Assembly (NCBI GenBank): GCA_046294495.1
Contig: JBKBKV010000005.1
Span: forward strand, 1-55,888
DNA: 55,888 nt
Origin: Dehalococcoidia bacterium
GTDB lineage: Bacteria > Chloroflexota > Dehalococcoidia > Lucifugimonadales > HRBIN23
Reading direction: 5' to 3'
This document shows positions 20,353-35,603 of the stretch, in pieces; the stretch's first letter is position 1; every line of letters starts with the position of its first letter. A model generated the notes under the pieces. It saw nothing but the letters and a program-made list of their open reading frames with translations, was not told the DNA's origin and searched no databases. A program made the position numbers and the translations under genes.

Positions 20353-20371
20353 CCCCTCTTGTCAGGGAGCG

Positions 20372-21175
20372 CTACTGCCCCTTGAAGGCTGGCTGGCGCT
20401 TCTCCAGGAAGGCCGCCACCGCTTCCCGATGGTCGTCGGTCAGGAAGGTGATGCCCTCCAGGGAGAGGGAGGTATCCAGCACCAGGTTCATATATTCCTT
20501 GACGATCTTGTTTACCGAATACTTGGTCCACTTGATGGCCTTGGTAGGCCCCTTGGCCAAGCGTGTAGCGAACTTGATAGCCTCGTCCAGGGCTTGCCCC
20601 TCTGGCACCACCTTATTGATAAGCCCGATGCGCTCCGCCTCCTCCGCCGACATCAGGTCGCCGGTCATCAGATACTGTTTAGCCCGCGCAACGCCACACA
20701 GGAGTGGCCAGATAACCGCTCCACCATCCCCAGCCACCAAACCCACCCGCACATGTGGGTCGCCGATGCGGGCGTTGCGGGCGGCGAAGATGACATCGCA
20801 GAAGAGGGCGAGGGTAGCACCTAGCCCCACAGCATCGCCGTTGACGGCGGCGATAATAGGGGCCTCCACCTCCAGCATGTTACGAATGAGGTGGCGCCCG
20901 CCTCTGGTAGGGGCGATGCCCCGCACCGGGTCAAAGCCCCGCTCCCGCATGCCCTGAATATCCCCCCCGGCGCAGAAGGCCCTCCCAGCCCCTGTTAACA
21001 CAATGGCGCGCACATCTGGGTCCCTGTCCAGGTCAACCCATATATCCTCTACCTCTAGATGCATAGCCGGGTGGATGGCGTTGAGGCGGTCTGGGCGGTT
21101 CAGGGTAACAATGGCCAGGCCGTCCTGTTTCTCCACCTTCAGGAACTGGTAGCGGCTGTAGTCAGGCATACCCAC
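20372..21175 (-). CDS. Enoyl-CoA hydratase/isomerase (crotonase) family protein
   Basis: VTLNRPDRLNA, LTGAGRAFCAGGDI, AAVNGDAVGLGATLALFCD: canonical crotonase oxyanion-hole motifs. Confidence 0.85.
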   Translation of the reverse strand: MGMPDYSRYQFLKVEKQDGLAIVTLNRPDRLNAIHPAMHLEVEDIWVDLDRDPDVRAIVLTGAGRAFCAGGDIQGMRERGFDPVRGIAPTRGGRHLIRNMLEVEAPIIAAVNGDAVGLGATLALFCDVIFAARNARIGDPHVRVGLVAGDGGAVIWPLLCGVARAKQYLMTGDLMSAEEAERIGLINKVVPEGQALDEAIKFATRLAKGPTKAIKWTKYSVNKIVKEYMNLVLDTSLSLEGITFLTDDHREAVAAFLEKRQPAFKGQ

Positions 21176-21241
21176 CTCCTTCGCCTTTTGCGCCTCTGAA
21201 GTGCCGCCTCAAGGATACCACATGTCGCCCTAGCGGACATA

Positions 21242-22666
21242 CTACAAGTGCGGGCGCCTAAGGCGCCCACGGATTTCCTGCTCCAGGGCATAACCCACCC
21301 GCAGGACAGTGGGTTCAGCAAGGGGAGCACCCACAATTTGCAGGCCAATGGGAAGGCCTTCGTGGCTGTAAGCACAAGGCACCGAGAGGGCGGGCACGCC
21401 TGTGAGATTGAAAGGGCTGACGAAGCGGGTGAGAGCCGTGCGCACTTCCACCGAGCGCCCCCCAACGCTTACCCGCTCTGCCCCAATGGGTGGGGCAGTA
21501 ATGGGGCAGGTGGGAAGCAGGAGTGCATCCACCCTCCGAAGAACATCTAGAAGGCTCTGGAGAGCCTTGCGCCGCACCTGCTGAGCTTTCAGGTAAAGGG
21601 TGCCAGGGAGGGCCATCCCAGCCAGAAGACGCACCAGCACATCCTCACCGTAGTCTTGGGGGCGCTCCCTAACCCAGCGCTCGTGCACTGCCGAAGCCTC
21701 GGCCATAAGGATGGCTATGTGGGCACCGGGCACATCTTCCACCCCTGGCCAGGAGACCTCCTCTATCCTTGCCCCAAGCCCTTCTAGAGCGTGGACAGCG
21801 TCCCTAAAGGCCTGGTCCACTTCTGTGTCCACTAATGTGAAGATGCCCTCCGTGAGCACACCCAACACTATCCCCTTTACGCCCTTGTCCAGGCCCCGCA
21901 GGTAAGGGGCCGACGGCGAGGGGTCCGAGCCCGGGTCGGCTGGGTCGTGCCCAGCGATAACGCTCAGGAGCAGCGCAACATCTTCTACTGTGCGCGCCAT
22001 AGGGCCTACATGGTCCATTGACCACGCCAGGGGGAACACTCCCCGTCGGCTCACACGCCCGTAAGTGGGCTTGAGGCCAACAATACCACAAAGGGCCGCC
22101 GGGATGCGGATAGAACCTCCTGTGTCAGTGCCTAGAGAAATGGGGAACAGGCCGGCGGCCAGGCCTGCCCCCGACCCTCCGGAAGAGCCGCCAGGGATAC
22201 GGGAGGTGTCCCAAGGGTTACGGGTGGCTCCGTAGTGGGGGTTGGTGGTGGTAATACCGTAGGCGAACTCGTGGAGGTTCAGTTTGCCCAGGAGAATAGC
22301 CCCAGCCCCCTTCAGGCGCTGGACCACAGGGGCATCCTCCTTTGGGACACGGCCCTGCAGGATACGGCTCCCGACAGTAGTCGGCAGGCCAGCCGTGTCA
22401 AAGATGTCCTTTAGGGCGACAGGGACACCGTGCAGAGGGCCCCGCCACGCCCCCTGCCGCGCCTCCTCCTCCAGACGGCGTGCCTCTTGGAGGGCTTCTT
22501 CAGGGTATAGGGCAATGTAGGCATTCAGGGCATCGTTCAGGTTCTGCCCTCGCTCCAGCAAGGCGCGAGTCACTTCAACCGGGGAAAGGCGCTTGCGCCT
22601 TATAAGGCGGGCTGCCTCCCGCGCCGAAAGCCAGCACACTTCGTCCGCGGTTGCTAGTGAGCGCAC
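21242..22666 (-). CDS. Amidase-signature family amidase (GatA-like)
   Basis: GGSSGGSGAGLAAGL...GTDTGGSIRIPAALCG is the AS-family Ser-cisSer-Lys signature block. Its start overlaps the upstream methyltransferase stop. Confidence 0.85.
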   Translation of the reverse strand: MRSLATADEVCWLSAREAARLIRRKRLSPVEVTRALLERGQNLNDALNAYIALYPEEALQEARRLEEEARQGAWRGPLHGVPVALKDIFDTAGLPTTVGSRILQGRVPKEDAPVVQRLKGAGAILLGKLNLHEFAYGITTTNPHYGATRNPWDTSRIPGGSSGGSGAGLAAGLFPISLGTDTGGSIRIPAALCGIVGLKPTYGRVSRRGVFPLAWSMDHVGPMARTVEDVALLLSVIAGHDPADPGSDPSPSAPYLRGLDKGVKGIVLGVLTEGIFTLVDTEVDQAFRDAVHALEGLGARIEEVSWPGVEDVPGAHIAILMAEASAVHERWVRERPQDYGEDVLVRLLAGMALPGTLYLKAQQVRRKALQSLLDVLRRVDALLLPTCPITAPPIGAERVSVGGRSVEVRTALTRFVSPFNLTGVPALSVPCAYSHEGLPIGLQIVGAPLAEPTVLRVGYALEQEIRGRLRRPHL

Positions 22667-23274
22667 AGAACACCTGCCTCTATGGGTGGTCTACTGGCCT
22701 GCACCGTTACCAGCAGCCCCCCCAAGTAGCGCTCCACCCTAGACAGCGTGAAGCCCGCCTCCTTCACCAGGGCTATTGTATCCCGGTCCAGGTGGCATCC
22801 CCCGGCCAGGTGCTTCCAGAGGGGCGTGGCGGCGCTCTGGAGCCAGGCGAGGGAACCCTTTGGATAGCGCACATGCTCCAGGGCCACTAGCAATCCCCCA
22901 GGACGCAGCACCCGATACACTTCCCTCAGCCCGTGCAAAGGGTCAGGAACCGTGCAGAAGACAAGTTGGGCTACAACCAGGTCAAAAATCCCGTCAGGGA
23001 AAGGGAGAGCCTGGGTATCTCCTTGGACGGGGTGAAGAGCAACCCCCCAGCGTGCCGCCTTTTGGCGCGCCCGATACAGGAAGGGGCGACGGGGGTCCAG
23101 CCCCAGCACGGCCTGCCCTGGGGCATAGGCTTGCAGGCCCAATCCCGTGCCGATGCCTATCTCCAGGACCACTTGAGAGGCCAGGCCGTTCAGTAATCGG
23201 CGTCGGAGGCCTGCCAGACCAAACCGTTCCAAGGGTGCGAGGCCCTGGTCATAGAAGGTTTCAAACAGCCCCAT
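22654..23274 (-). CDS. Class I SAM-dependent methyltransferase
   Basis: Motif I VLEIGIGTGLGL, then acidic-loop and Methyltransf_11-like motifs (LRPGGLLVALEH). Confidence 0.8.
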   Translation of the reverse strand: MGLFETFYDQGLAPLERFGLAGLRRRLLNGLASQVVLEIGIGTGLGLQAYAPGQAVLGLDPRRPFLYRARQKAARWGVALHPVQGDTQALPFPDGIFDLVVAQLVFCTVPDPLHGLREVYRVLRPGGLLVALEHVRYPKGSLAWLQSAATPLWKHLAGGCHLDRDTIALVKEAGFTLSRVERYLGGLLVTVQASRPPIEAGVLCAH

Positions 23275-23346
23275 ACCCAGCCTCTTCGCGGGGGCAAGGC
23301 CTGCCTAAACTTTACCCTGCTGTGGGGGAAGCGTCAAGGTGGTGGG

Positions 23347-24894
23347 TCAGGGTGGGAGTGGACGGAACGCCCGGCAATCGGGGCAAAGACCGGTAAAGCC
23401 ATGGAGGTTGGCGATACCCTGCTGGGCCATCAGACTTTCCACACGCTTTACCAAAGCCAGGGGCATGAAGGGGCGGCCACAGGAGCGGCATACCGCCTGC
23501 TCCGTCCTCGCTAGCACCCTAGGGCCTTGGGCAAGGGTAGTGGTGTCCACGCCCTGCCATAGGCTTATGGCCCTCTCGGGGCAGGCGGGAACGCACAGGG
23601 CGCAGGCCGTGCACCGTGCTGGGTTGAAAGTTAGCGCCACTTCCCCCTCACTTTCCTGGATGGCGAGGGCCTGCGGGGGGCAGAGGGTGGCACAGGTGCC
23701 ACAGAGAGTGCAAGCCGTGCTCACCTGCACTACGCCAAGGGGAACGAAAGAGTGCTCCTGATGCACCCTCGCACTGGCGCGCTGGGCCAGGGCCAGAAGG
23801 AGGGCGGGGAGGCCATCTTCACGAGAGGTTTCCAGGGGGGCAAGGGACGGAAGGGTAGCCAAACGGTGCAGGGTATCAGCCTGCGCCCCTTTGTCGGATG
23901 GCAAGATGGCCAGGCGCTCTCGTCCCAAACCCAGGGCCTCCAGCAAGTCGGCCAGGGCCTGTATCCGCCCACGCACGACGGGCGAGGCCCGATGGGGGCA
24001 ATGGGCGGCGTCGGGGAGAGCCACGCCCGTTCCCCCCAGGCCAAAGACCAGCAAGAGCACCTCCAGGGGGAGCATCCCCAGGCAAGGCACCTCAACCTGG
24101 AATATGGAGGGTGGGGGGCTGTCGTCGCCTTGAGGCAGGGCGCCACAGGGGCAGGTAAAGGCGATCACACGCTGGGAGAGGCGTTCTTGGGGGAAGGTCA
24201 GGAGGGCGTGCACCTCGGCCCGCAGGGGGGATATGCCATTGGCAGGGAGGTTTATGGCCTGCACAGGGCAGGATGGAGCGCACAGCCCACAGCCCTCGCA
24301 CCGCTCCCGCACCACCCTAATGGCTCCATCTCCCTCCTCCAGGGCTTGGTAGGGGCAGGCCCCGAGGCACAGGCGACACCCCTGCTCGGCGGCGCACAGG
24401 TCCTCCTTTACTACCGCCACCTCCTGGTAGCGCACTGGGGGAAGGCGAAAGAGGGCGCGCCGGCTAACGGGCGTAGAAAGGGACGCAAGGCGCAGGCGAA
24501 CGGCATCAGGCGATACCTCCGGGGAGGCCTGAAGGCGGGCGACAGCCCCTGCCAGAAGCAGGGTGGCTCTGGCCAAGGCCATCTCCTGGTCAGGGACGGG
24601 CCTATGCCACCCCTTCAGGTCAACGGTGCGGAGGCTCAGGGAGGCAAGGCGCACCCGCTGGACCTCCCGTTCAAAGGCCATACGGTGCTCCTTCTCGGCA
24701 CAGGCACCTACTACAACCCCCTCTGCCTGGCACTCAAGGGCTATTCGGGCCAGTAGGGCAGGCTTCTGGCAGAGCGCCTCTGGCCCGCGCACAACTACAC
24801 CCGGGAAGTGCCCCCCAAGGGAGCGGCGGATGTGCTCCAGGTCTACGCCGTTCAGCCCGGCGCAGTAACACAGGGCAACCAGGATGCGGCGCAT
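23347..24894 (-). CDS. Cytoplasmic polyferredoxin: four CxxCxxCxxxCP motifs, N-terminal MvhD/FlpD-like Cys region, C-terminal Zn-ribbon-like CxxC...CxxC
   Basis: CRLCLGACP, CEGCGLCAPSCP, CTLCGTCATLCP, CTACALCVPACP. N-terminus ILVALCYCAG...EGVVVGACA. C-terminus CRSCGRPF...LCPDCRAF. No signal or Tat motif. Confidence 0.7.
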   Translation of the reverse strand: MRRILVALCYCAGLNGVDLEHIRRSLGGHFPGVVVRGPEALCQKPALLARIALECQAEGVVVGACAEKEHRMAFEREVQRVRLASLSLRTVDLKGWHRPVPDQEMALARATLLLAGAVARLQASPEVSPDAVRLRLASLSTPVSRRALFRLPPVRYQEVAVVKEDLCAAEQGCRLCLGACPYQALEEGDGAIRVVRERCEGCGLCAPSCPVQAINLPANGISPLRAEVHALLTFPQERLSQRVIAFTCPCGALPQGDDSPPPSIFQVEVPCLGMLPLEVLLLVFGLGGTGVALPDAAHCPHRASPVVRGRIQALADLLEALGLGRERLAILPSDKGAQADTLHRLATLPSLAPLETSREDGLPALLLALAQRASARVHQEHSFVPLGVVQVSTACTLCGTCATLCPPQALAIQESEGEVALTFNPARCTACALCVPACPERAISLWQGVDTTTLAQGPRVLARTEQAVCRSCGRPFMPLALVKRVESLMAQQGIANLHGFTGLCPDCRAFRPLPP

Positions 24895-24904
24895 GGCTTA
24901 CCCC

Positions 24905-25612
24905 CTATCTCCGCTTGGGGGGCGAAGCGGTTCCCCTGCGCAGATGCTCAATCACAGCGTTTACCAGCCCCTGCTCATGGAATACAAAAGCCACCGCACC
25001 TTCTGCTACAGTAGCATAGAAGGAGGAGGCGTTGTGCTGAGACAATGCTCGGGCCAAAAGGGGGAGCCACTGGACAAGGTGCTCCTCAAGAAATGCCTTC
25101 TCCTGCTCCAGCATTGCCACACCAGCGGCTAGGTCTTTTCTCCGCCACGCCTGGCCCTCGCGCTCACACAGGAAAGCCATGAACTCCAACTCCACACTGA
25201 TGTGGTCCGGCGGGTATCCCGCAGTGGAGAGGGTAAGGTCGGCGGCCCGATAGTGTTCCAGGAGCCTCGCCAGCAGAAGCCCTGCATCGGCGCCCAACAG
25301 GCCTCGGCATACTCCTTCCCGCGGGGATAGAGGGGCTCTTTCCGTCCCCCGGGAGAAGAGGCGCATATACTCCTCCTGCAAACGCGGGAGGTCCGAGGTG
25401 GTAAGAGCGGTGAGAGCCTGGAACAGGCGTCGCCAGGTTGGAAAAAGGTCAAAGCCCAGAAGGGGATAGCGCTCCAGAACATAAGCCACTTGTGCCAGCG
25501 TGGACAGGCGCTCCCCCTCTGGGTAGAAGAAGAGGTCGGCTAGAAAGCGATAGGCTGCCTGGCGTGCTTGGGCCAGGCGTGGCAAAGGCGTGCCGGGGTA
25601 ACTAGATGCCAC
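24905..25612 (-). CDS. TorD/DmsD/NarJ-family molybdoenzyme maturation chaperone
   Basis: 235 aa, all-helical. RQAAYRFLADLFFYPEG...EEYMRLF...PDHISVELEFMAFL matches the TorD-like family signature (E-Y-x-LF, PDH-x-x-EL-F). Confidence 0.7.
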   Translation of the reverse strand: MASSYPGTPLPRLAQARQAAYRFLADLFFYPEGERLSTLAQVAYVLERYPLLGFDLFPTWRRLFQALTALTTSDLPRLQEEYMRLFSRGTERAPLSPREGVCRGLLGADAGLLLARLLEHYRAADLTLSTAGYPPDHISVELEFMAFLCEREGQAWRRKDLAAGVAMLEQEKAFLEEHLVQWLPLLARALSQHNASSFYATVAEGAVAFVFHEQGLVNAVIEHLRRGTASPPKRR

Positions 25613-25688
25613 AACCCTTCCCTTCCCCCTATCTTATCCCTGCGCCCCCCACGGCGGCTAGGGGCCTCAAGGCCGGCTCGCCTCATCG

Positions 25689-26990
25689 CTACCTTCCTTC
25701 CTCCTGCACCTCCATGATAGGGAACAACTTGATGAAGAGGAGGTATAGGAACATCCCCAGGGCGAAGAGGCCCAGGACAACGCTGTATTCCACCCAGGTG
25801 GGTGCGTAGTAACCGGGGCCGTAGGGCAGGAGGGCACCGTGAGTCAGCGAGGGGACTACGATCAGGTAGCGCTTGCCGATGGCTGCCAGGTTCACCAGCA
25901 CGCCGCTGAGGACGATGAGAGGCAGGGAGTAACGCCTCACAAGGGCTTGCCCAGCGCCAAGGGCGACAGAGAGCACGAACAGCCCGCCCGAGAGCCAGAA
26001 GAGCCAGGCGTATTGGCCCTTCAGCAGAGCATCCGTTACCTGAACCTCGTAGCCAGGGCCTGCATAGCCGCTGGCCAGGAACTCAAGCAGCAGGAAAGAG
26101 ATGTAGATTATGGTGAGCGCCATCAGGAGGTTGCTGAGCCAAGCGAAGACCCGTGGGTTCAACCGCTCCCGCTCCCCCAACACCTCCCGGAGGACGGCTG
26201 CGATGACGATGATAATCCCCGTAGCCGAGACCCCTGCCAGCACCACGAAACTGGGGCCCTGAAGGGCGCTATACCACCCCGGCCGTCCCCACTGGATGCC
26301 GAACACCAGACCCGAAGTGGAGGCTGCCACTACGCCCGCCACCAGCAGGACAAGGGCCAGTCCCAGACTGACCCGCTGGCGCCTCTCCTGTTGGCGCTGC
26401 CTCTGCGCCTCGGAGGTCATGGGGTAGCCTGCGGCTATAGCGCGCAGGAACCTTCGCCACCCGGTGGACTGGCGGGCGAGAAGGGCGGCATCCCGGCGGC
26501 TATCTAGGTAGAGATAGGTGGCAGTGGCCACTAGAGAGGTGATTACCCCCACGCTGAAAGTGCCGAAGAAGGGGGACATGGGCCGGGCATAGCGGAGAAG
26601 GTTCACGATGGCCCTGACGGGCTGACCTACATCGGCAATGATGCTCAAGGCCCCGACCAGCAAGGCAGCCAAAGCCGTCAGACCAAGGGGCCTACTTAGA
26701 GGGTGCAGATGGGAAAGCCCCATCAGGCGGACAAGGGCCAGCAAAACCATAGCCCCAAACCCTACCCCCACCGCGTAAAGCTCAAAGGCCACATACAGCC
26801 CCCAAGTGGCCCCGGCCGTGGTGCCCACATCCCGCATGCCCGTCGCGACCTCCCCTTCCATAACTTGGCGGGCGTAGGCATAAGCCCCCAAGCCCACCAG
26901 GGCCAGGAGGCCCAGGGTAATAAGAAGCCACCCAACACCAACGCGCCCCATGCCGTAGGGAAGAGCCCTCGCTTCTGCACGCGTTGCCAT
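25689..26990 (-). CDS. NrfD/PsrC-family integral membrane quinone-interacting subunit (paralog 2)
   Basis: About 10 predicted helices and highly similar to 30140-31486 along the full length. AAGGAGGAGG lies 6 nt before ATG 26990. Confidence 0.8.
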   Translation of the reverse strand: MATRAEARALPYGMGRVGVGWLLITLGLLALVGLGAYAYARQVMEGEVATGMRDVGTTAGATWGLYVAFELYAVGVGFGAMVLLALVRLMGLSHLHPLSRPLGLTALAALLVGALSIIADVGQPVRAIVNLLRYARPMSPFFGTFSVGVITSLVATATYLYLDSRRDAALLARQSTGWRRFLRAIAAGYPMTSEAQRQRQQERRQRVSLGLALVLLVAGVVAASTSGLVFGIQWGRPGWYSALQGPSFVVLAGVSATGIIIVIAAVLREVLGERERLNPRVFAWLSNLLMALTIIYISFLLLEFLASGYAGPGYEVQVTDALLKGQYAWLFWLSGGLFVLSVALGAGQALVRRYSLPLIVLSGVLVNLAAIGKRYLIVVPSLTHGALLPYGPGYYAPTWVEYSVVLGLFALGMFLYLLFIKLFPIMEVQEEGR

Positions 26991-27039
26991 ATGTATCCTC
27001 CTCCTTGTGTTGTTTGGCACTGAACCCTTGGCTTGCACC

Positions 27040-27570
27040 TTATCCTATACCCTGTCTCACCTTATTCCGCACCACCCTAAACCCAAAGACCACCCGGTGG
27101 CCGTGGTCCAGGTCATGGCAAACCACAGACTCCTGGCTTACCCCCTCTCCCCGGAGGCACCGGCCCACCGCCCATTCCAGACGGGAGCGGACCAGGGGAC
27201 AGAGACCTGGAGTAACAGTGTCTTCTGTGAAAAGGAACCTCTGCCCTACCCGGAAGCGCTGGCCCAGGGGGCACACCCCCTGTGCCTGAATCACGCGAGC
27301 GATGGCCACCACTTGGGGAACCGTGTGCTCCACATTTCGGGACGCCTCCAACCGGCACCCCCCATGCTTTCGCTCTCGCACCCACCCCACAAGAGCCGTC
27401 ACCTGTATCACAAACAGACCAACCACCGCCGCGAGGGCCAGCAGCAGGGCCAGGAGATAGCCGCCAAACATACCAATCGCCAGCAACAGGGCTATGCCAA
27501 TCCCCGCCAAGACCCTCCTCAGAGCCGAGGCCCGGCCTACCTTTTCCACCTCAGTATCAACGCCCTTCAT
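27040..27570 (-). CDS. Membrane-anchored protein with C-terminal TIGR04076-like Cys domain (paralog of 3979-4527)
   Basis: N-terminal helices (VLAGIGIALLLAIGMFGGYLLALLLALAAVVGLFVIQVTALVG), then GVCPLGQRFRVGQRFLFTED..TPGLCPLV..VVCHDLDHGHRVVFGFRVVR. AAGGAGGTGG precedes the ATG. Confidence 0.5.
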   Translation of the reverse strand: MKGVDTEVEKVGRASALRRVLAGIGIALLLAIGMFGGYLLALLLALAAVVGLFVIQVTALVGWVRERKHGGCRLEASRNVEHTVPQVVAIARVIQAQGVCPLGQRFRVGQRFLFTEDTVTPGLCPLVRSRLEWAVGRCLRGEGVSQESVVCHDLDHGHRVVFGFRVVRNKVRQGIG

Positions 27571-27877
27571 GCTCCACCTCCTTAACCCCTGTGCCGCTGG
27601 AGAAGCCCTTCTGAGAGATTTGGGCGATGAACTCCCTTATCCACTTCTCCCCCCTGGCTCTGTAGAAGGAGTAAGGTCCGCCCGAGAGGGGGTTGCGGAA
27701 TATTTCCAGGATCTGCTGGTAGTTCAACCCCCGGCGTATGAACTCCTCCACCATACAGTGGGCTATTTCTTCCAGAATGTCTTCCAGCGGCTCAACGCAC
27801 AGGGGCTCAATATGGTATCCCAAGGGCTTCGCCTCTTTAGGCATACCATTGCCCTTCTGGCTCAGCCCGGTTCCCAT
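27557..27877 (-). CDS. Hypothetical soluble protein (no family recognised)
   Basis: First gene after the terminator. Start chosen at MGTGLSQ (AAGGTGGGGG upstream); an alternative start is at 27937. The product ends 14 nt inside the next gene. Confidence 0.4.
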   Translation of the reverse strand: MGTGLSQKGNGMPKEAKPLGYHIEPLCVEPLEDILEEIAHCMVEEFIRRGLNYQQILEIFRNPLSGGPYSFYRARGEKWIREFIAQISQKGFSSGTGVKEVEHEGR

Positions 27878-27951
27878 ATCTGCCCCCACCTTGCTGGTCC
27901 CCTTTTTCAGTGTGGAGGAGCACGGGCTGGGAGACATCTCCCATGAGAGGG

Positions 27952-27994
27952 GGTTCTATAATAAAAAGAGACGGGATTTTTTATCCCGTCTCTT
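27952..27994 (-). terminator. Intrinsic terminator after the response-regulator gene
   Basis: Perfect 12-bp stem AAGAGACGGGAT/ATCCCGTCTCTT with T5 loop. On the minus strand it is followed by TTTTATTAT. A second hairpin CCATCCCC/GGGGATGG lies at 28026-28047. Confidence 0.75.
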
Positions 27995-28076
27995 GCCCGA
28001 TTGCCGTGGCTCCCCTCAGGCTTTACCATCCCCTCCGAAGGGGGATGGACATCCCCTGCCATCGGGGTAGCGCCGG

Positions 28077-28733
28077 CTAATAAGGAGGCTTAAGGAACCC
28101 CAGGCGCGTGGCGTATTTCAACAGTTCACCCCGGCTCTGCAGGTTCAGTTTCTCCATGATATGCTCCCGATGGGTCTGGACGGTGTGAACGCTGATGCAC
28201 AGCCGCTCAGCGATCTCTCGGTTGGTATAGCCCTGGGCGATGAGGCGCAACACCTCTTTCTCCCGGTCGCTTAGCTTGGCGTATGTCTCCTTCTCCTCAC
28301 CCTTTCCCACTCGGCTCAGGTAGTCGGCCACCAGATAGCCGGCCACGGAAGGGTGAAGGAAGATCTCACCTTTGGTCACCGCTCGTAAGGCCGCCACCAG
28401 CTCGGCCGATTTGGCTCCTTTCACCACATAGCCAGCGGCCCCTGCCTCCAGGGCCCGAAAGAAATACTCGGCATCCCCGTGCATGGTCAGGATCAGCACC
28501 TTCGCTTGAGGGAGGGCCTTCAATATCTTGCGGGTTCCCTCCAGGCCGTTGCCTTCCATCCTGATGTCCATCACCACCACATCTGGGCGATTTTTCTGTG
28601 CCTCTTGGAGCGCCTCCTCCGCGTTCCCCGCCTCCCCAACCACCTCAAACTCGCCCTGCGCTTCTAGAAGCATGCGGAGCCCTTCACGGAACAAGGCGTG
28701 GTCATCCACTAACAGCACTCGGGCTTTGCCCAT
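28077..28733 (-). CDS. NarL/FixJ(LuxR)-family response regulator
   Basis: Receiver domain (VLLVDDH...VVVMDIRM...KVLILTMH) plus a C-terminal GerE HTH (LSDREKEVLRLIAQGYTNREIAERLCISVHTVQTHR). Confidence 0.85.
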   Translation of the reverse strand: MGKARVLLVDDHALFREGLRMLLEAQGEFEVVGEAGNAEEALQEAQKNRPDVVVMDIRMEGNGLEGTRKILKALPQAKVLILTMHGDAEYFFRALEAGAAGYVVKGAKSAELVAALRAVTKGEIFLHPSVAGYLVADYLSRVGKGEEKETYAKLSDREKEVLRLIAQGYTNREIAERLCISVHTVQTHREHIMEKLNLQSRGELLKYATRLGFLKPPY

Positions 28734-29841
28734 CCATGGCCTCCTCAAGAAGCGGAAGCTCCACCTTCACCTTCGTCCCCCTGCCCGGCGTAGAGACCAA
28801 CTCCAGATGAGCACCGATGATCTCGGCCCGCTCTCGCATACCTTCCAGCCCCAGCCCCCGTTTCATCCGCTGGACCTCTTGGAGATCAAAGCCGCGGCCG
28901 TCGTCCTCCACTATGGCCGTCAGACGGTCGTCCTGGAAATGGATCTGCACCCTGGCGTGTTGCGCCGCTGCGTGGCGAGCGATATTGTTTATCGCTTCCT
29001 GCAACATGCGGAACAAGCCCACTTCCACGGCTTCAGGGAGCCTCCTGGCCTCCCCTTGCACCTCAAAATCCAAACTGACCCCCAATGGTGCCAGACAGGC
29101 CCGGGCGTAGGAGTATAGGCCAGACACCAAACCCAGATAGTCCAGAGCCGCCGGCCTCAGGCCCAGGATGATCCGTCGCAACTCCTCCAGTGCCCGGCTC
29201 CCCTGAAGGATGGACCGCTCTATATGCTGACGCACTCGCTCCTGGCCTGGGAGCAGGGAATCCCGGAGGGCTTCTATCCCCATCAGGAGGTTGGCCAGGG
29301 CCGGGGCGGTATCGTCATGGAGCTCCTGAGCCAGACGCCGCCGTTCCTCCTCCTGGGCGTGGATGACCTGCTTCACAAGACGCTGGACCTCCAGAGTCCG
29401 TTCCCGCACCCGCTTCTCCAGTTCCTGCTCCCACCAAGCCCGCGCCTCACTGGCCGCTTTAAGCTGTGAGCACATAGCGTTAAAGCTTTGAGCCAGCCGC
29501 CCGATCTCGTCCCGCCTTGCCGTAGTGACGGGCGGCTCATCCAGCACGCCCCGGGCGATACGGGCCGCGGCTTTCTCCAACTCTCCCAGGGGACGGAGAA
29601 TGTAGCGGGCGTGCAGCCAGGCGCTGGCCGACGCCACCGCCAGAACCCCAAGCCCGAAGAGAGGCACGATGCTTAGCAGCCGGGAAAGGGGCCAGCCGTT
29701 TCGTAAGGCATAGGCCGTGATCAGGCCAAAAACCACCGTTGCGAACACAACACCTGCCACCACCCCAAGAACCACCTGGTAGCACACGCTCAGGTCCCGG
29801 TACAAGGTAAGCGCTCGTCTCAAAACCCCGCCTCCCTGCAT
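28702..29841 (-). CDS. Sensor histidine kinase, NarX/LiaS type (2 TM + HAMP + HisKA_3 + HATPase_c)
   Basis: HAMP-like DEIGRLAQSFNAM, H-box RRLAQELHDDTAPAL, N/G boxes (NNIARHA, EDDGRGF, GLGLEGMRERA). Start at MQGGG with GGGAGGGGAG upstream. Confidence 0.8.
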   Translation of the reverse strand: MQGGGVLRRALTLYRDLSVCYQVVLGVVAGVVFATVVFGLITAYALRNGWPLSRLLSIVPLFGLGVLAVASASAWLHARYILRPLGELEKAAARIARGVLDEPPVTTARRDEIGRLAQSFNAMCSQLKAASEARAWWEQELEKRVRERTLEVQRLVKQVIHAQEEERRRLAQELHDDTAPALANLLMGIEALRDSLLPGQERVRQHIERSILQGSRALEELRRIILGLRPAALDYLGLVSGLYSYARACLAPLGVSLDFEVQGEARRLPEAVEVGLFRMLQEAINNIARHAAAQHARVQIHFQDDRLTAIVEDDGRGFDLQEVQRMKRGLGLEGMRERAEIIGAHLELVSTPGRGTKVKVELPLLEEAMDGQSPSAVSG

Positions 29842-29920
29842 CTCCCCTCCCTTTCCCTGGCAGGAGTATCCTACCCTTCCGCTCTGCCACCCCGCATTGG
29901 GGCCGAGGGGCAACCTCCAC

Positions 29921-30127
29921 TCACCGCTCGGGAAACAGTTCGTAAACCACGGCCGAGAGGAAGGTGAGCATTACCCCCAGCACAAACAACCCCGCCGCAA
30001 AGGGCACCCGGGGGTTGCTGAAGCCCTCATGGACAGGCTGTCCGAGGGGTGCCGCCAGGAAGAAGTAACTTACCACCGCCAGGACCACCCCCGCCACCAG
30101 CGTCAGGACGGTCAGGGCAATACGCAT
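29921..30127 (-). CDS. Small two-helix membrane protein (68 aa), translationally linked to NrfD paralog 1
   Basis: MRIALTVLTLVAGVVLAVVSYFFLAA...AAGLFVLGVMLTFLSAVVYELF. GGGAGGTG lies 5 nt before the ATG, which is 12 nt after the upstream stop. Confidence 0.55.
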   Translation of the reverse strand: MRIALTVLTLVAGVVLAVVSYFFLAAPLGQPVHEGFSNPRVPFAAGLFVLGVMLTFLSAVVYELFPER

Positions 30128-30139: not shown

Positions 30140-31486
30140 TCATTGCTTCTCCGACCGCCTCTGCAACTCCGCCCTCACCGGTGCTTCCACCGGCACCTCC
30201 CTATGCACAACTTCCATAATGGGGAAGACCTTCATGAAGAGGGTGTAGAGGAGACCCCCCAGGGCGAAGAGACCCAGGATAATACTGTATTCCACCCAGG
30301 TGGGTGCGTAAGCGCCCTCACCGTAGGGGAGCAGGTTCCCCATCGTCAGAGAGGGCGCTACGATAAGGAAGCGCTTGCCGATAGCCGCTATGTTCACCAA
30401 CACCCCTGTCAGCACGATCAACGGCAGGTAGTGACGCCGGGTGAGGGCCTGTGCAAGCCCCATGAGAGCGGAGACGAACAGAAGCCCCCCTGAAAGCCAG
30501 AAGAGCCACGCATACCTGCCGGTAAGTAGCGCCTGGGTCAGGCGTGCCTCGTGGTGGTGCCCAGCATAGCCCGCCGTCAGCATTTCCGCCAGAAGGAAGT
30601 AGAGGTAGATCAAGGCGAGCACCGTCATGAAGTTGCTGAGCCAGACAAAGACCCGCAGGTTCAACTGCTCCCGCTCCCCCAGCACCTGCCTGAGTAGGGC
30701 CGCGATGACGATGAGGAGCCCCGTCCCAGATACCCCAGCCAGCATTACAAAGCCAGGGGCCTGGAGGGCGCTATACCACCCGGGGCGTCCCAACTGGATG
30801 CCAAAGACGAAGCCTAGGGTGGAGTGGGCCGTTACCAGCAAAGGCAGGATGGCCAAGGCTAGCCAGAAACTGGTCTGGTCGTGCCGTTTCCGTTCCTCGG
30901 GGGTGTCCCGGTAGCCCGCCGCCCACAGCCGGTAAAACCCCCTAAAGGGGGTGTCCTTTTGGGCCATCAGATAGGCGTCCCGACGCCCCGCCAGGTAGAA
31001 ATAGACCAGGCTGGCGAACAGGTAGCCGGAGATGACCAGGGTGAAGGTGCCGAAGAAGGGGGACATGGGCCGGGCGTAGCGGGGGAGGTTGATAAGGGCC
31101 CGAAAGGGCTGCCCCACATCTGCCAAGACGCTGAAGGCACCAAGTATGAGTGTTATCACCGTCAATAACTCGGCCGTGCGGGAGACGGGCCGCAGATAGG
31201 AGAGGTTCATAACCCGCACCAGGGCCGCCACGGTGATGCCCGCGAAACTCACCCCTACGAAATAGACCACGAAGGCGATATATAGCCCCCACGGGGCACC
31301 GCCCATAGTGCCCACATCCCGCATCCCCGTAACGATCTCCCCTTCCATAAGTTGACGAGAGTAGGCGTAAGCCCCCAGTCCCACCAGGGCCAGGAGGCCC
31401 AGCGTCGCCATAAACCACACTGCGCCCAACCGCCCTATGCCATAAGGGAGCCTTTCAAGCCGTGGAGCCTCGACCTTTTCCACCAT
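30140..31486 (-). CDS. NrfD/PsrC-family integral membrane quinone-interacting subunit (paralog 1)
   Basis: About 10 predicted helices. Start at MVEKVEAPRLERLPYG, 2 nt after the FeS-subunit stop, with GGGAGGGTG upstream. Confidence 0.85.
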   Translation of the reverse strand: MVEKVEAPRLERLPYGIGRLGAVWFMATLGLLALVGLGAYAYSRQLMEGEIVTGMRDVGTMGGAPWGLYIAFVVYFVGVSFAGITVAALVRVMNLSYLRPVSRTAELLTVITLILGAFSVLADVGQPFRALINLPRYARPMSPFFGTFTLVISGYLFASLVYFYLAGRRDAYLMAQKDTPFRGFYRLWAAGYRDTPEERKRHDQTSFWLALAILPLLVTAHSTLGFVFGIQLGRPGWYSALQAPGFVMLAGVSGTGLLIVIAALLRQVLGEREQLNLRVFVWLSNFMTVLALIYLYFLLAEMLTAGYAGHHHEARLTQALLTGRYAWLFWLSGGLLFVSALMGLAQALTRRHYLPLIVLTGVLVNIAAIGKRFLIVAPSLTMGNLLPYGEGAYAPTWVEYSIILGLFALGGLLYTLFMKVFPIMEVVHREVPVEAPVRAELQRRSEKQ

Positions 31487-31488: not shown

Positions 31489-32226
31489 TTACACCCTCCC
31501 TTTCACTTTCTCCATCTGCCGAACCGCAGTGCCGGGTGGCTGCCCTATGTAGTAAACCCGGGGCTGGGTATTCCACTCCTCCAGCAGGCGGAAGTGGGGC
31601 TTGCGCTTCAGAATGCGTGAGACAATACTGTTGGGGTCATCCAGGTCGCCGAAGTGGAGGGCGAAGGCAGGGCAATTGGCCACGCAGGCGGGCTGAAGCC
31701 CCTTCTCCACCCGCTGGACGCAGAAGGTGCACTTCTCGATCACGCCCTTTATATGGCCCCCCCCAGCGATGCGCCGCCTCTCAGGGCCGTAAGAGGCGGC
31801 CAGGTCGGGGTTCTTGTAGGGCGGGGTAGTGCCATTGGTTCGGGAGGCCAGGGCCTTGTCTTCCTTCCAGTCCAGGTAGTAGTTCTTCTTGGGTGCCTTC
31901 CAGTTGAAGTAGTTGACACCGTAAGGGCAGGCCACCTGGCAGTATCTGCACCCGATGCACCTCTCCCAGTCGGTGGCCACCAGCCCGTCCTCCCGTTTGT
32001 AGCGTGCCCCCACAGGACACACCTTCACGCAGGGGGGATTGTCGCAGTGCTGGCAAGGGCGAGGCAAGAACCAAACGCGGGTGTTGGGATATTGGCCCTC
32101 CTCAAAACGGAAGACATACATCCAGAAGACGGCCTGGGGGGTGTTGTTCTCCACTTTGCAGGCCTCCATGCAGGCCCGACACCCCATGCACCGCTCCAGG
32201 TCTATGACCATGCCGTATTTGGCCAT
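31489..32226 (-). CDS. Four-cluster [4Fe-4S] electron-transfer subunit (PsrB/NrfC/DmsB type)
   Basis: CMGCRACMEAC, CQHCDNPPCVKVCP, CIGCRYCQVACP, CTFC...CVANCP. No own signal peptide, as expected for a Tat hitch-hiker. Confidence 0.9.
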   Translation of the reverse strand: MAKYGMVIDLERCMGCRACMEACKVENNTPQAVFWMYVFRFEEGQYPNTRVWFLPRPCQHCDNPPCVKVCPVGARYKREDGLVATDWERCIGCRYCQVACPYGVNYFNWKAPKKNYYLDWKEDKALASRTNGTTPPYKNPDLAASYGPERRRIAGGGHIKGVIEKCTFCVQRVEKGLQPACVANCPAFALHFGDLDDPNSIVSRILKRKPHFRLLEEWNTQPRVYYIGQPPGTAVRQMEKVKGRV

Positions 32227-32240: not shown

Positions 32241-33035
32241 CTACTGTGCCTCAATGGGGATAGCCACGATGTCCGCATCAACACCTATGCCCAGGGTCAC
32301 GGGGAAAGAAACATGGTGCCGTCGGTTAGAGACCATGTCCTCAAAAACAGCGACCCCGATGGTATACGCCCGGCCTGGCTCAAAGGCGACATCGTCAGGA
32401 TTGCCGGTATTAAGTTTGCGGCGCATTTCCAAGACCCATTTCCCGTTCTCCCACCGACTGTTAGCCAGGATATCCCCTCGGCTTCCATCAGGCGTCCGCA
32501 ACACCCTGCGGGAGATGATGTCGCCAACCTGGAACTGGACAGAGGGATCAAAGGGCGCGGTTGTGACGCCCTCAATAAGGGGCGATTTGGTCAGGAGTTC
32601 TTCCAGGCGCCCTTCAGAGATAGCCTGAAAGCCAACTTTAGTCTTGTCATACATGTAGGTGGGCTTGCCTTCCTTCAGAACATTCTCCGAGAACATGCTC
32701 TTGCCCTTGTCGCTGTTGCGGTATTCCAGAACATAGAAGTCGTCGGCGTAGCCGATAGGCCCAGAGCGGGCCCCCCGCCACATTAACAAATCCAGGAACT
32801 GCTTGTCCTGAAAGAGTCGCTGGATCTCCTCCTTGGATTTACCCTTATTCCAACCTCCCGCAAGGTAAAGAGGCGTGGGGACTCCCAGGCTGTATACTGG
32901 GGCTCCTGAGGCTTGGAGGCCTGGATACTGACCGTCCCTAAGTAGTCCCCCACCGCCACCAGCACTGCAAAGACAATGGCGCCCCCCTACAAGAAGACGT
33001 TTACCAGGCCGGGCAAGGAAGTCTTTCATGGTCAT
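32241..33035 (-). CDS. Ethylbenzene-dehydrogenase-gamma-like (EB_dh / cytochrome c552-DMSO-reductase-like haem-binding domain) protein
   Basis: The C-terminal block ANSRWENGKWVLEMRRKLNTGNPDDVAFEPGRAYTIGVAVFED...RRHHVS parallels the type II DMSO-reductase gamma-subunit pattern (HRNGEWNV..R....D......AFAVW...R). The N-terminus as written lacks a signal peptide (see findings). Confidence 0.6.
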   Translation of the reverse strand: MTMKDFLARPGKRLLVGGRHCLCSAGGGGGLLRDGQYPGLQASGAPVYSLGVPTPLYLAGGWNKGKSKEEIQRLFQDKQFLDLLMWRGARSGPIGYADDFYVLEYRNSDKGKSMFSENVLKEGKPTYMYDKTKVGFQAISEGRLEELLTKSPLIEGVTTAPFDPSVQFQVGDIISRRVLRTPDGSRGDILANSRWENGKWVLEMRRKLNTGNPDDVAFEPGRAYTIGVAVFEDMVSNRRHHVSFPVTLGIGVDADIVAIPIEAQ

Positions 33036-33041: not shown

Positions 33042-35603
33042 CTACTTATACACCCGCACCTTGACATGGAAGGTGTTGTCGGCAGTGTTGGCTACATACC
33101 CTTCGCCGGTGAAGAACAGGGTGTTGGGGGTAGGCCCTTGCCCTTTGGTCCAGGGGTGGCGGGCTACCTCTCCATAGTGGTGAGGCATGCCCACCACATC
33201 CGGGCGGATGGCCTCGGTCAACGCCACTTTCACTTTCACCCGGCGCGTCTCGCCTGTTACGGCATTGTGGGACTCCACGATGACCTCATCCCCCTCTTTT
33301 ATGCCCCTCTCCCGCGCCGTTGCAGGGTTCATCACCAGCCTCTGCTCCTGGGCCAGTTCCGCCACCAAAGGTATCTGAGAGGCCCTGCTCTGCTTGAACT
33401 CTATCTTCTTAAAGGAGATAAGGGTGAGGTCATACTGGGGCGGGGACTTCCACATGGTCGGTTCCCGCCAGGTGGGGAAGGGGGTATAGTCCCGCCAGTA
33501 GACCTCCTCAGCACCCTTGGCCCGCATCTCCCTCTGGTAGCGCAAGAGGGACTCCCCGTATAGGCGGTGGCGTTCGGCGCCTTTGAAGCCCTGGGCATAG
33601 CCGTAAAAGGTCTTGGGAGCGACAGGGCCCCGCACCCAGACGCCATTCCTCTCAAAGTAGGCTATCCCCTCTGCCAGCCCCTGGGACTTGGCCCAGCGGT
33701 CGGCGATCTCCCTCACCGTGGGCTTGGTGTTGATGTCCAGTTTGTGGGGGTCTTTGAGGCCCAGTTGGGCATTGAGGCGGTCCAGGAAGCCGTCTTTACC
33801 GTAGAGGATGCCCAGCCTCTCGCACAGGTCCAGGTATATGTCAATCTCCCCACGGCTCTGGAATATCGGCTCCGTCACCGGCAGGCGGAAAGTGGTGGCG
33901 GCCACATACTGGTCAGTGGCTCCTATGGGCCCCTCGTATTTTTCCAGGGTAGAGGCGGGAAGAACTACATCAGCAAAGAGGTCGGCGGTGCGGGAGAGCC
34001 ATGGGTCAATGGCCACCACAAACTTGAACTTCTTATACGCCTCCATAAAGGTAGCCTGGTCCGTGAAGGAGGCCAGGGGGTTGACCATGTGCAGGATAAC
34101 CACCTCCGGGACCTTGTTGACCTGGTATTTCTCAGGGTTGAGCATGACCTTGGCTATCATGCCGGGGTTGACGGAAATAATGGGGAAGAACTTGCTGTCT
34201 TTGAGGGTGTAGTCGTAGGGGGGGTCTTTAATCTTCACTGAGTCTAGGGACTTGTAGTTGCCGTGCACCTTCCATGTCCAGTCAATGCGAACACCCCCCA
34301 CCGCCTCCACGGCCCCCAGAAGCATAAAGACCATATACATAGCACGGTAGAACTGAAAGCCCAGTTCCTGCTGGGACACGTGGTAAGCCATGAGGGAGAC
34401 GGGTCGGTAGGGGAGCGTAACCCCCTCCAGGACAATAGTGCTGCCGATCATAGCGTTCTGGCCCAGTTCACGAGCCACCCGTCTAATGTCCTCGGCGGGG
34501 ATGCCGCAGACCCCAGCAGCCCATTCGGGGGTATACCGCTCCACATGCTCCTTGAACAGTTGGAAGGCTGGCTTGACCCTTACCCCACCCACCTCAAACT
34601 CCCCTTCTAATGCTGGAGAGACATCCCTTGCATCAAAGGGCCTGGCGCTCTTGGTCTTCTCGTCCCATACCTGCTCCTTCCCTTCTATGCGCAGGAAGAA
34701 GCCGTCCTCCTGCACCAGGAAGGGAGCATTGGTATACTTGGCGAGGTAATCCAGGTCAACGGTGCCCTGAGCGATGAGCGCATTGCACAGGGCTAGGGCC
34801 AGGGCCAGGTCGGTGCCCGGCTTGATGGGGAGCCACTGGTCGGCGAAGGGGCCGGCGTTGCGCAGGTATGGGTCTATCACCACCACCTTCATCCCCCGCT
34901 CCCGCGCATCCAGAAACTGCTGGTTCCAGGTGATCCAGCACAACTTGTTGCCCCCTGCGTTGGTGATGTTCCACCCCCAGGCCAAGAGGTAGCGGGTGTA
35001 GCGAAAGTCGGGGTGGGCATTGCCGTGGAGGCCGATGGTGTATTCGGCTGCGCGGTAGCCGGCGTCGGAGCAGTAGGAGCCATGCCCCACCTTGGTTGCC
35101 CCCAGGGCACCAACAAAGGCGTTGTCGTAGATAGGCTCCTGTTTACTGCGCCCCTTCTGCCATAAGATTAGCTTGGGGTCTTTGGCCCGCACCTCCTTGA
35201 TCTTGGCCGCCACCAGTTCCAGGGCCTCGTCCCAGGTGGCTGGGCGGAAGCGCCCGGGGACACCCTTCTCGTTGGTGCGGATGAGGGGGGTCTGCACGCG
35301 GTTGGGGTCGTAGAGAGCCATAATCTGGGCTACCCCTTTAGGGCAGAGGGTGCCACGGTTGCGGGGGTGGTTCGGATGCCCCTCCAGTTTCACCACCAGG
35401 CCGTTCACCTTACGGGCCAAAATGCCACAGTCCTGTTTGCCTATCCAGCAGGTGGTGGGAACCCATTCTTCGCTGGCTGGGAGTGGTTTGGAATTGCCCC
35501 CTGCCGCCAGCGTCTCCAGCCCCTGGGACAGGAAACGAGAGAGGAGCAGAGAACCACCGACCGCTGCGCTACCCTTTAGGAAAGTCCGTCGCGTTACTTT
35601 CAC
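33042..35603 (-). CDS. Tat-exported molybdopterin (bis-MGD) oxidoreductase catalytic subunit, Psr/Phs/Ttr-like
   Basis: A GTG start with AAGGAGG 7 nt upstream gives (M)KVTRRTFLKGSAAVGG, a twin-arginine signal. It has an FS0-like Cys region, LCPKG and the candidate Mo-ligand region GHGSYCSDAGY. It is MopB-like along the full length, and an ADC-barrel-like C-terminus (VVGMPHHYG) is present. Confidence 0.85.
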   Translation of the reverse strand: MKVTRRTFLKGSAAVGGSLLLSRFLSQGLETLAAGGNSKPLPASEEWVPTTCWIGKQDCGILARKVNGLVVKLEGHPNHPRNRGTLCPKGVAQIMALYDPNRVQTPLIRTNEKGVPGRFRPATWDEALELVAAKIKEVRAKDPKLILWQKGRSKQEPIYDNAFVGALGATKVGHGSYCSDAGYRAAEYTIGLHGNAHPDFRYTRYLLAWGWNITNAGGNKLCWITWNQQFLDARERGMKVVVIDPYLRNAGPFADQWLPIKPGTDLALALALCNALIAQGTVDLDYLAKYTNAPFLVQEDGFFLRIEGKEQVWDEKTKSARPFDARDVSPALEGEFEVGGVRVKPAFQLFKEHVERYTPEWAAGVCGIPAEDIRRVARELGQNAMIGSTIVLEGVTLPYRPVSLMAYHVSQQELGFQFYRAMYMVFMLLGAVEAVGGVRIDWTWKVHGNYKSLDSVKIKDPPYDYTLKDSKFFPIISVNPGMIAKVMLNPEKYQVNKVPEVVILHMVNPLASFTDQATFMEAYKKFKFVVAIDPWLSRTADLFADVVLPASTLEKYEGPIGATDQYVAATTFRLPVTEPIFQSRGEIDIYLDLCERLGILYGKDGFLDRLNAQLGLKDPHKLDINTKPTVREIADRWAKSQGLAEGIAYFERNGVWVRGPVAPKTFYGYAQGFKGAERHRLYGESLLRYQREMRAKGAEEVYWRDYTPFPTWREPTMWKSPPQYDLTLISFKKIEFKQSRASQIPLVAELAQEQRLVMNPATARERGIKEGDEVIVESHNAVTGETRRVKVKVALTEAIRPDVVGMPHHYGEVARHPWTKGQGPTPNTLFFTGEGYVANTADNTFHVKVRVYK

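Follow-up and report, generated by a model that had tools for sequence, protein, structure and literature searches.

A recurrent, uncharacterised Sre/Psr-like molybdoenzyme cluster, probably split by a lineage-specific insert, in a Dehalococcoidia contig

We analysed a 55,888-nucleotide (nt) stretch of DNA from a Dehalococcoidia bacterium (GenBank assembly GCA_046294495.1, contig JBKBKV010000005.1), referred to here as the window, and in it a molybdenum (Mo) enzyme locus at positions 22654-35603. All coordinates are positions in the window unless a locus number precedes them, and all genes at 22654-35603 lie on the minus strand. A preliminary description made from the sequence alone had placed a separate second module at 22654-27937, downstream of a terminator and containing a second NrfD-type membrane protein (NrfD2), a TorD-like chaperone and a polyferredoxin. 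Comparison of gene order across phyla points to a different arrangement, in which 22654-27937 represents the distal end of one conserved respiratory Mo-enzyme cluster and not an independent second complex: the chaperone and polyferredoxin genes form the tail of the upstream operon and the remainder is a lineage-specific insert. The window contains a rearranged, lineage-specific form of a Sre/Psr-like cluster that is recurrent and uncharacterised, and it is very probable, judging from sequence comparison, that an ancestral six-gene operon was split by the insert. The combined explanation that we favour joins this split operon to a maturation role for chaperone and polyferredoxin and to a neofunctionalised NrfD2, and we regard it as moderately probable. 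All functional statements made here are inferential.

Conserved synteny places the chaperone and polyferredoxin with the upstream Mo enzyme

The open reading frames (ORFs) listed in the preliminary description are all present on the minus strand, and the genes and the terminator are real: coordinates, Pfam matches and the 12-bp stem with its T-run were confirmed. Read 5' to 3', the locus encodes the Mo subunit, an EB_dh-like subunit, an iron-sulfur (FeS) subunit, NrfD1, a 68-amino acid (aa) protein, a histidine kinase and a response regulator, followed by a structured element and the terminator. Past the terminator follow a 106-aa gene, a 176-aa gene, NrfD2, the TorD-like chaperone and the polyferredoxin. 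Intergenic gaps and overlaps are short inside each half of the locus. The window contains one Mo subunit and two NrfDs.

To place this arrangement, loci were found via polyferredoxin homologues, with further ones coming from a scan of one genome per species, and mapped with the window proteins. The order Mo subunit, FeS subunit, one 10-helix NrfD, 68-aa gene, TorD, polyferredoxin is found in at least 11 loci of several phyla, including L002, L004-L009, L011, L014 and L016 from Chloroflexota, CSP1-3/Sysuimicrobiota and Actinomycetota. In "Bacterium HR23" (L001, hereafter HR23), the order is Mo subunit, EB_dh, FeS subunit, NrfD, small membrane protein, TorD, polyferredoxin, methyltransferase, amidase and enoyl-CoA hydratase, with no insert. 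Wherever the sequence upstream of the polyferredoxin gene could be read (14 of 14 loci), its immediate upstream neighbour is the chaperone gene. Outside a narrow clade, every relative has a single NrfD encoded in one operon with the Mo and FeS genes, and this single NrfD is 54-70% identical to NrfD1 versus 46-58% to NrfD2. The Mo subunits of the relatives, whose sources are hot springs and the subsurface, are 56-72% identical, and a twin-arginine translocation (Tat) motif is present in every associated Mo subunit examined. The insert consists of kinase, regulator, terminator, 106-aa gene, 176-aa gene and NrfD2, is common to the window, L084 and L085 only, and is located between the 68-aa membrane gene and the chaperone gene.

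Because this synteny is conserved across phyla with a single NrfD, the chaperone and polyferredoxin appear to belong to the upstream Mo enzyme and not to NrfD2. As relatives outside the clade carry a single NrfD, the polyferredoxin also predates NrfD2 and does not need it. The earlier proposal of the polyferredoxin as a specific, Hme/Dsr-like partner of NrfD2 is consequently not supported: relatives pair it with their single NrfD, and CCG/HdrD and haem-b/haem-c partners are absent. Among the genes that had been described as one set, the TorD-like chaperone and the polyferredoxin share in the conserved synteny, which does not extend to the 106-aa and 176-aa genes or to NrfD2. In the literature on CSP1-3/Sysuimicrobiota we found no discussion of this Mo enzyme.

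The catalytic core resembles Psr/Phs/Arr-type enzymes

The catalytic subunit (33042..35603) is a molybdo-bis(pyranopterin guanine dinucleotide) protein with the Tat signal TRRTFLKG and matches the Pfam families Molybdopterin, Molybdop_Fe4S4, Molydop_binding and TAT_signal. It missed every substrate-specific NCBIfam equivalog cutoff by a wide margin, the best match being PhsA at 254.7 bits against a cutoff of 694, with ArrA at 138 against 1600. The closest solved structure is Thermus PsrA (2vpw, E=8e-43), followed by ArrA. These matches place the subunit in a Psr/Phs/Arr-like superclade, and the Tat-bearing Mo subunit, FeS subunit and NrfD together mark the cluster as one of the Psr/Phs/Sre/Arr-type complex iron-sulfur molybdoenzymes.

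The four-cluster FeS subunit (31489..32226) is PsrB/ArrB/DsrO-like, with a Fer4_11 match and scores of 204-214 bits against the ArrB and DsrO profiles. It is 65-79% identical in relatives, has no signal of its own and is presumably co-exported with the Mo subunit. NrfD1 (30140..31486), with a Pfam NrfD match and ten hydrophobic segments, represents the ancestral 10-helix quinone-interacting anchor. Directly 3' of it, as for the single NrfD of relatives, lies the gene for a two-helix membrane protein of 68 aa (29921..30127), identified by tblastn with the small proteins of L001 and L002 (E=5e-15 and 3e-13). This gene was overlooked in the preliminary description, is positioned between NrfD and chaperone in 12 loci and is key to the synteny. 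No redox cofactor-binding motifs are present in either NrfD or in the 68-aa protein; NrfD2 contains no cysteine and no CxxCH. Likewise, no c-type cytochrome is encoded in the window, where no ORF has two or more CxxCH motifs and no cluster protein has any, and the locus proteins show neither a CCG Pfam match nor a CCG-like motif.

The remaining subunit of the upstream half is a 264-aa EB_dh-like protein of the haem-b gamma type (32241..33035; PF09459, 100.4 bits). Among relatives it is found only in HR23, where it is 511 aa long (L001 812-2347). EB_dh subunits usually accompany type II dimethyl sulfoxide reductase-family enzymes that have no NrfD. In the window the gene separates the Mo gene from the FeS gene of an enzyme that is Psr-type and anchored by NrfD. 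In HR23 the FeS gene is split into two overlapping ORFs (L001 2349-2675 and 2624-3091), reflecting a frameshift or an assembly error.

The polyferredoxin combines HdrA-like and MvhD-like domains with an invariant twin-arginine peptide

The chaperone (24905..25612) matches PF02613 at 70.5 bits, above the cutoff of 22.2, and TIGR03482 at 77 bits, below cutoff. It belongs to the TorD/NarJ family, scoring above the PF02613 gathering threshold and being encoded with a Tat Mo-enzyme, and in all relatives too the chaperone gene adjoins a Tat Mo cluster. The view that it serves the subunit at 33042-35603 is upheld, this being the only Tat-exported Mo subunit in the window. The N-termini of the soluble proteins encoded 3' of the terminator carry no signal peptide and no Tat motif, in agreement with the preliminary description, and the polyferredoxin is accordingly predicted to be cytoplasmic.

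The polyferredoxin gene (23347..24894) encodes 515 aa with matches to Pfam Fer4 families (dicluster) and FlpD. Its domains are, in order, a domain similar to the HdrA N-terminus, a linker containing the motif SRRALF, two [4Fe-4S] motifs, an MvhD/FlpD-like domain, two further [4Fe-4S] motifs and a C-terminal four-Cys ribbon. There are four cluster motifs, as first described, of which three are canonical CxxCxxCxxxCP and one is a Cx5CxxCxxxCP variant. The resemblance to MvhD/FlpD noted earlier is also real (PF02662, 30.3 bits versus a cutoff of 22.3), except that it resides in the middle domain (residues 261-330) while the N-terminal domain, to which it had been assigned, is HdrA-like. Profile searches against the PDB aligned residues 6-129 with the HdrA N-terminal domain (8-135), residues 131-238 with the HdrA C-terminal ferredoxin domain and residues 246-342 with MvhD. 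The AlphaFold2 (AF2) model (predicted local distance difference test, pLDDT, 76; predicted template modelling score 0.78) contains a pair of alpha/beta domains, a pair of ferredoxin domains and, at 130-172, a linker that is disordered. With this model as query, Foldseek returned HdrA at E=3e-9 and MvhD at TM-scores of 0.60-0.68 (normalised to target length). The protein has neither a Pyr_redox nor a FAD match in Pfam that would indicate a flavin core. The polyferredoxin resembles HdrA minus its flavin core, fused to an MvhD-like domain.

An exhaustive profile search recovered at least 950 representatives of this family (50% identity clusters) at E<=1e-30, the best 150 of which match the polyferredoxin over all or most of their own length. 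This refutes an apparent rarity suggested by a word-indexed search, which had returned six relatives. Database names of family members are generic only ("ferredoxin", "4Fe-4S binding protein"). Across 148 family representatives, conservation reaches 99-100% for the 16 Cys that make up the four [4Fe-4S] motifs and 99% for the C-terminal CxxC...CxxC ribbon. Three Cys at the ends of strands 1-3 of each MvhD-like domain are also well conserved, C9/C42/C65 at 80-89% and C248/C271/C299 at 91-97%. In the linker motif [ST]-R-R-x-[LF]-[FL], the two Arg are conserved at 99% and 98%.

The internal SRRALF motif (24447-24464, residues 144-149) is similar to the Tat consensus, lacks a hydrophobic region and lies in the linker that AF2 predicts to be disordered. 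A genuine Tat signal in the polyferredoxin was rejected on the grounds that the RR motif is internal and has no hydrophobic region. The N-terminal sequence MRRILVAL was rejected as a Tat signal as well, since it corresponds to the first strand of the HdrA-like domain and relatives lack it. HdrA was considered as the source of the RR motif and discarded, the aligned HdrA segment having no RR. Among more distant relatives, similar RR-x-hydrophobic motifs are found ahead of ferredoxin domains.

In some shorter relatives (160-360 aa), the RR motif and the C-terminal ribbon persist together with one or two ferredoxin domains. Such proteins, from Anaerolineae, Chloroflexia and Spirochaetes, adjoin other Psr-like Mo/FeS/NrfD sets at L022 8242-10606, L023 5674-10402 and L024 965-3602. 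As the shorter relatives keep the RR-ferredoxin-ribbon unit beside Psr-like sets, this unit may be the functional core. A Pyrobaculum match (L018) was examined as a further instance of the system and rejected, its neighbours being HdrD-like and Sqr-like with no Mo cluster.

A maturation role for the polyferredoxin is weighed against electron transfer

In the role that we propose, the TorD-like chaperone would hold on to the Mo subunit's Tat signal within the cytoplasm and the polyferredoxin beside it would act as a NapF/SreD-like factor for pre-export maturation or redox proofreading. Its task would be to furnish the Mo/FeS pair with Fe-S clusters or reducing equivalents, or to check the clusters, and the chaperone may dock on the disordered S-R-R-x-L-F peptide. 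Such docking has a precedent in NarJ, which binds the vestigial Tat-like N-terminus of the non-exported NarG. The proposal of a NapF-like role before export follows from the fixed position of the polyferredoxin beside a Tat-signal chaperone. In addition, electrons would not be able to cross the membrane through a cofactor-less NrfD, which would leave the polyferredoxin outside the path from quinone to active site. By analogy with NapF, we consider that the polyferredoxin has about an even chance of being the pre-export maturation partner of the chaperone.

Several points weigh against this assignment. It rests on analogy and topology, and the polyferredoxin is far larger than NapF and consists of electron-transfer modules of the HdrA/MvhD type; in known systems such modules connect redox partners in the cytoplasm and do not act as assembly factors. 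It is kept in every cluster examined; NapF, by comparison, is often dispensable, and Nilavongse et al. reportedly found in 2006 that the RR motif of NapF itself is not essential. Finally, the terminator would uncouple transcription of chaperone and polyferredoxin from that of their client, an unusual situation for a maturation pair.

The main rival is that the polyferredoxin represents a permanent cytoplasmic electron-transfer subunit docked on NrfD and/or the 68-aa protein, linking a cytoplasmic donor or acceptor to the quinone site and thereby extending an Hme/Dsr-like logic to the whole cluster. We judge this unlikely. It stays alive owing to the HdrA/MvhD make-up of the protein, all of whose parts are electron-transfer modules (four [4Fe-4S] motifs, MvhD and the two terminal domains of HdrA), and owing to its strict retention in the cluster. 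The neighbouring small membrane protein, itself conserved, could provide an anchor. A parallel for such anchoring is found in W. succinogenes, whose NapF is reported, in a study cited in PMC10609526, to need the membrane protein NapH for membrane attachment. On the other hand, the catalytic Mo/FeS pair is Tat-exported in every locus, NrfD and the 68-aa protein possess no cofactor motifs that could carry electrons across the membrane, and the CCG/HdrD-like or haem-b partner found in Dsr/Hme is missing. Moreover, the polyferredoxin gene is always joined to the chaperone gene and not to NrfD, and an archaeal cluster (L017) has the polyferredoxin without the 68-aa protein.

NrfD2, a probable duplicate under purifying selection, and two orphan genes

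The first gene of the insert past the terminator encodes a 106-aa soluble orphan (27557..27877). A longer, 126-aa ORF starts at 27937; the shorter form is favoured since L084 lacks the upstream ATG and carries a 2-nt indel there, which supports the start given in the preliminary description. The protein has no Pfam, NCBIfam, PDB or remote match beyond the narrow clade, and its homologue in L084 is 83% identical. The second orphan, of 176 aa (27040..27570), is composed of an N-terminal hydrophobic hairpin and a C-terminal domain in which five Cys and two His are conserved. The two helices described earlier correspond to this hairpin, and the four-Cys domain has five. A similarity to TIGR04076, also described earlier, exists at 13.8 bits, far below the cutoff of 33 (E=0.065), and involves residues 23-67 of the C-terminal domain only. 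The AF2 model of this protein is poor (pLDDT 56, with the C-terminal domain below 50). Homologues of both orphans are found only in two short contigs (99% and 83-84% identical) that show the same inserted arrangement; for the 176-aa protein, the two are 99% and 84% identical and share the gene context.

NrfD2 (25689..27038; 433 aa from the probable start at 26990) matches Pfam NrfD at E=2.9e-20 and shares 60% identity with NrfD1. The two are sisters in 46 of 50 neighbour-joining bootstraps, with NrfD2 on the longer branch. NrfD2 is altered at 34 of 125 positions that are invariant in 14 orthologues, and the ionisable or polar changes include E106G, H221A, Y155S, E198Q and Y296S. Its best match among solved structures is ActC of alternative complex III (6f0k_C).

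Ratios of nonsynonymous to synonymous substitution rates (dN/dS) were computed against L084, at a dS of about 0.24. They are 0.29 for the 106-aa gene, 0.36 for the 176-aa gene, 0.22 for NrfD2, 0.25 for the chaperone and 0.14-0.17 for kinase and regulator. No frameshifts or indels relative to L084 occur over 106, 176 and 433 codons. GC content at third codon positions is 0.70-0.75 in the three genes, like that of their neighbours, and the genes overlap or abut, which suggests translational coupling. The ratios of the two orphans and the lack of indels indicate that both ORFs are real genes. NrfD2 appears to be a local, lineage-specific and fast-diverged duplicate of NrfD1 that is still under purifying selection, a pattern pointing to neofunctionalisation and not to simple redundancy or decay. 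NrfD2, perhaps together with the membrane-anchored 176-aa Cys protein, would then be a neofunctionalised accessory membrane subunit of the same enzyme.

By analogy with alternative complex III, an ActF-like accessory role of NrfD2 in the same complex is plausible. In its explicit form, NrfD1 and NrfD2 would sit together in one complex like ActC and ActF, with NrfD1 keeping the quinone site and NrfD2, possibly joined by the 176-aa protein, contributing a second module for ion translocation or structure. Both NrfDs have ten helices, NrfD2 is closest to ActC, and NrfD2 has lost invariant polar or ionisable residues (E106, H221, Y155, E198, Y296) under continued purifying selection in an arrangement conserved in L084 and L085. 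Yet one NrfD suffices in all other lineages and the cytochrome subunits of alternative complex III are absent, leaving such a pair a doubtful proposition, slightly less probable than the electron-transfer role of the polyferredoxin. It is compatible with the best explanation for chaperone and polyferredoxin.

A bolder combination, to which we give a still smaller chance, takes the polyferredoxin as a redox-active co-chaperone of a new class: its S-R-R-x-L-F peptide would occupy the chaperone as a Tat-signal mimic, release of the Mo subunit to the Tat translocon would await a signal from the polyferredoxin clusters that cofactor loading or the cellular redox state is right, and NrfD2 would be ActF-like with a Cys-rich membrane partner. 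Neutral debris left by a recent rearrangement, in the shape of non-functional ORFs and a decaying paralogue, is a very improbable explanation for the two orphan genes and NrfD2: the absence of homologues beyond a very narrow clade, the poor 176-aa model and the many invariant residues lost from NrfD2 would fit, but the low dN/dS values, intact frames, neighbour-like codon composition and overlapping or abutting genes speak against it. The accessory subunit encoded by a duplicated NrfD remains the reading that we prefer.

The insert carries a two-component system, a structured element and a terminator

The HAMP/HisKA_3 histidine kinase (28702..29841; dN/dS 0.17) and the LuxR-type response regulator (28077..28748; Pfam Response_reg and GerE; dN/dS 0.14) have counterparts in L004, L006, L011 and L014, where the homologous pair is encoded upstream of the Mo gene or divergently from it. 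The presence of homologous pairs near the Mo gene in other phyla suggests that kinase and regulator form a dedicated two-component system of the Mo enzyme, and the kinase would be its cognate sensor, relocated into the operon in the window lineage.

The intrinsic terminator (27966..27994) has a 12-bp stem, a 5-nt loop and a T-run, is conserved in L084 and separates the response regulator from the distal genes. Between it and the stop codon of the response regulator lies a strongly structured RNA-like element of about 80 nt (27995..28075), in which a long-range stem surrounds the hairpin CCATCCCCCTTCGGAGGGGATGG. The fold of 27955-28078 has a free energy of -59.5 kcal/mol (z=-4.9). The element is about 94% conserved in L084 and L085 and unique within the window. 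An Rfam scan of 20000-37000 gave zero matches, the structured element included, indicating that there is no molybdenum cofactor riboswitch in this region. Given that the succession of structure, terminator and genes is the layout of an attenuator or leader, the element might regulate the distal genes in this manner.

Genes downstream of the cluster

Downstream (3') of the polyferredoxin follow a UbiE-type methyltransferase (22654..23274), an amidase and an enoyl-CoA hydratase (crotonase), all assigned by Pfam, and a promoter-like site at 23337-23309 precedes the methyltransferase. This trio (20372-23274, minus strand) is found 3' of the polyferredoxin only in the window, HR23 and L083. It probably reflects lineage synteny and lies outside the respiratory cluster.

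Implications

With these results, the puzzling second module becomes the accessory end of one Mo-enzyme operon, and a recurrent, uncharacterised Mo cluster with a six-gene signature emerges in Chloroflexota, CSP1-3 and Actinomycetota. The analysis also provides a handle on the widespread SreD-type polyferredoxins in the form of a domain plan, the three-Cys sites and an invariant Tat-like peptide encoded beside a Tat-signal chaperone. If the SRR peptide is a docking site for the chaperone, a redox component would be added to Tat proofreading. The NrfD duplication is a natural experiment in how ActC/ActF-like pairs could arise. Worth carrying forward are the six-gene signature, the invariant Tat-like peptide and the recent NrfD duplication with its lost invariant residues.

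Comparison with known systems

The preliminary description could not assign the gene set to a named complex, and the comparisons bear this out: it differs from Dsr/Hme and alternative complex III and falls below the substrate equivalog cutoffs. PsrABC, PhsABC and ArrAB(C) share the core of Mo subunit, FeS subunit and NrfD with the window, whereas the characterised Psr, Phs and Arr enzymes have no 10-helix NrfD, small membrane subunit or polyferredoxin. The cluster is not of the DsrMKJOP/Hme type: it has no CCG subunit (DsrK/HdrD) and no haem-b DsrM, and its two NrfDs score 51.9 and 77.6 bits against the DsrP profile, for which the cutoff is 350. Alternative complex III possesses two paralogous 10-helix NrfD-type subunits, as does the window. 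The cluster is not a member, however, since the pentahaem ActA and monohaem ActE cytochromes c are missing from the window. In contrast to alternative complex III, the window Mo subunit has kept the domains that bind its cofactor and is not joined to the FeS subunit, and the NrfD duplication is recent and confined to one narrow clade.

Likeness to HdrA and MvhD extends over three parts of the polyferredoxin, the N-terminal domain, the linker with the first ferredoxin domain, and the middle domain, which align with the HdrA N-terminal domain, the HdrA C-terminal domain and MvhD, respectively. Its PF02662 score above the gathering threshold and its predicted MvhD fold support membership in the MvhD/FlpD family. 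It is not an HdrA, having no thioredoxin-reductase/FAD core and scoring 65-87 bits against HdrA NCBIfam models with cutoffs of 1100-1400, and the lack of this core argues against flavin-based bifurcation by the polyferredoxin. Unlike HdrA/MvhD complexes, the window has no HdrB/HdrC partners and the context is that of a periplasmic quinone-linked Mo enzyme.

NapF is a cytoplasmic protein with four [4Fe-4S] clusters that binds NapA and is required for NapA Fe-S assembly before Tat export (PMC10609526). The window polyferredoxin is similar in being cytoplasmic, in its four [4Fe-4S] motifs and in being encoded beside the chaperone of a Tat-exported Mo enzyme. Escherichia coli NapF carries an N-terminal SRRGIL, the window protein an internal SRRALF, both without a hydrophobic region. 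The Nap chaperone is NapD, which is not a TorD-family protein. NapF also differs in its length of 164 aa and in having no HdrA- or MvhD-like domains and no ribbon. The polyferredoxin scores 49.4 bits against TIGR00402, below the cutoff of 102.2, and so is not a NapF member, and BLASTP similarity between the two is confined to the Fe-S motifs; the proposed resemblance is functional only.

The closest known system is sreABCDE of Acidianus ambivalens and Thermoproteus tenax, which has the same five-part composition as the window cluster. It encodes a Mo subunit, an FeS subunit, an anchor, the polyferredoxin SreD of unknown function and the NarJ/TorD-like chaperone SreE (PMC3189178; PMC8551704). 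The window genes and their relatives contain this full gene set as defined in PMC3189178. The likeness is one of composition, and the sequence link to SreD-type proteins is indirect, via the Hydrothermarchaeota locus L017. This locus has the exact A-B-C-D-E order, and its D protein, with FlpD and Fer4 domains and no RR motif, matches the window polyferredoxin at E=4e-31. Compared with sreABCDE, in the window the chaperone gene precedes the polyferredoxin gene and the NrfD is of the 10-helix, ActC-like type, the sreABCDE anchor being about 300 aa. The window cluster further adds the 68-aa membrane protein and, in its own lineage, the EB_dh subunit, NrfD2 and the two orphans.

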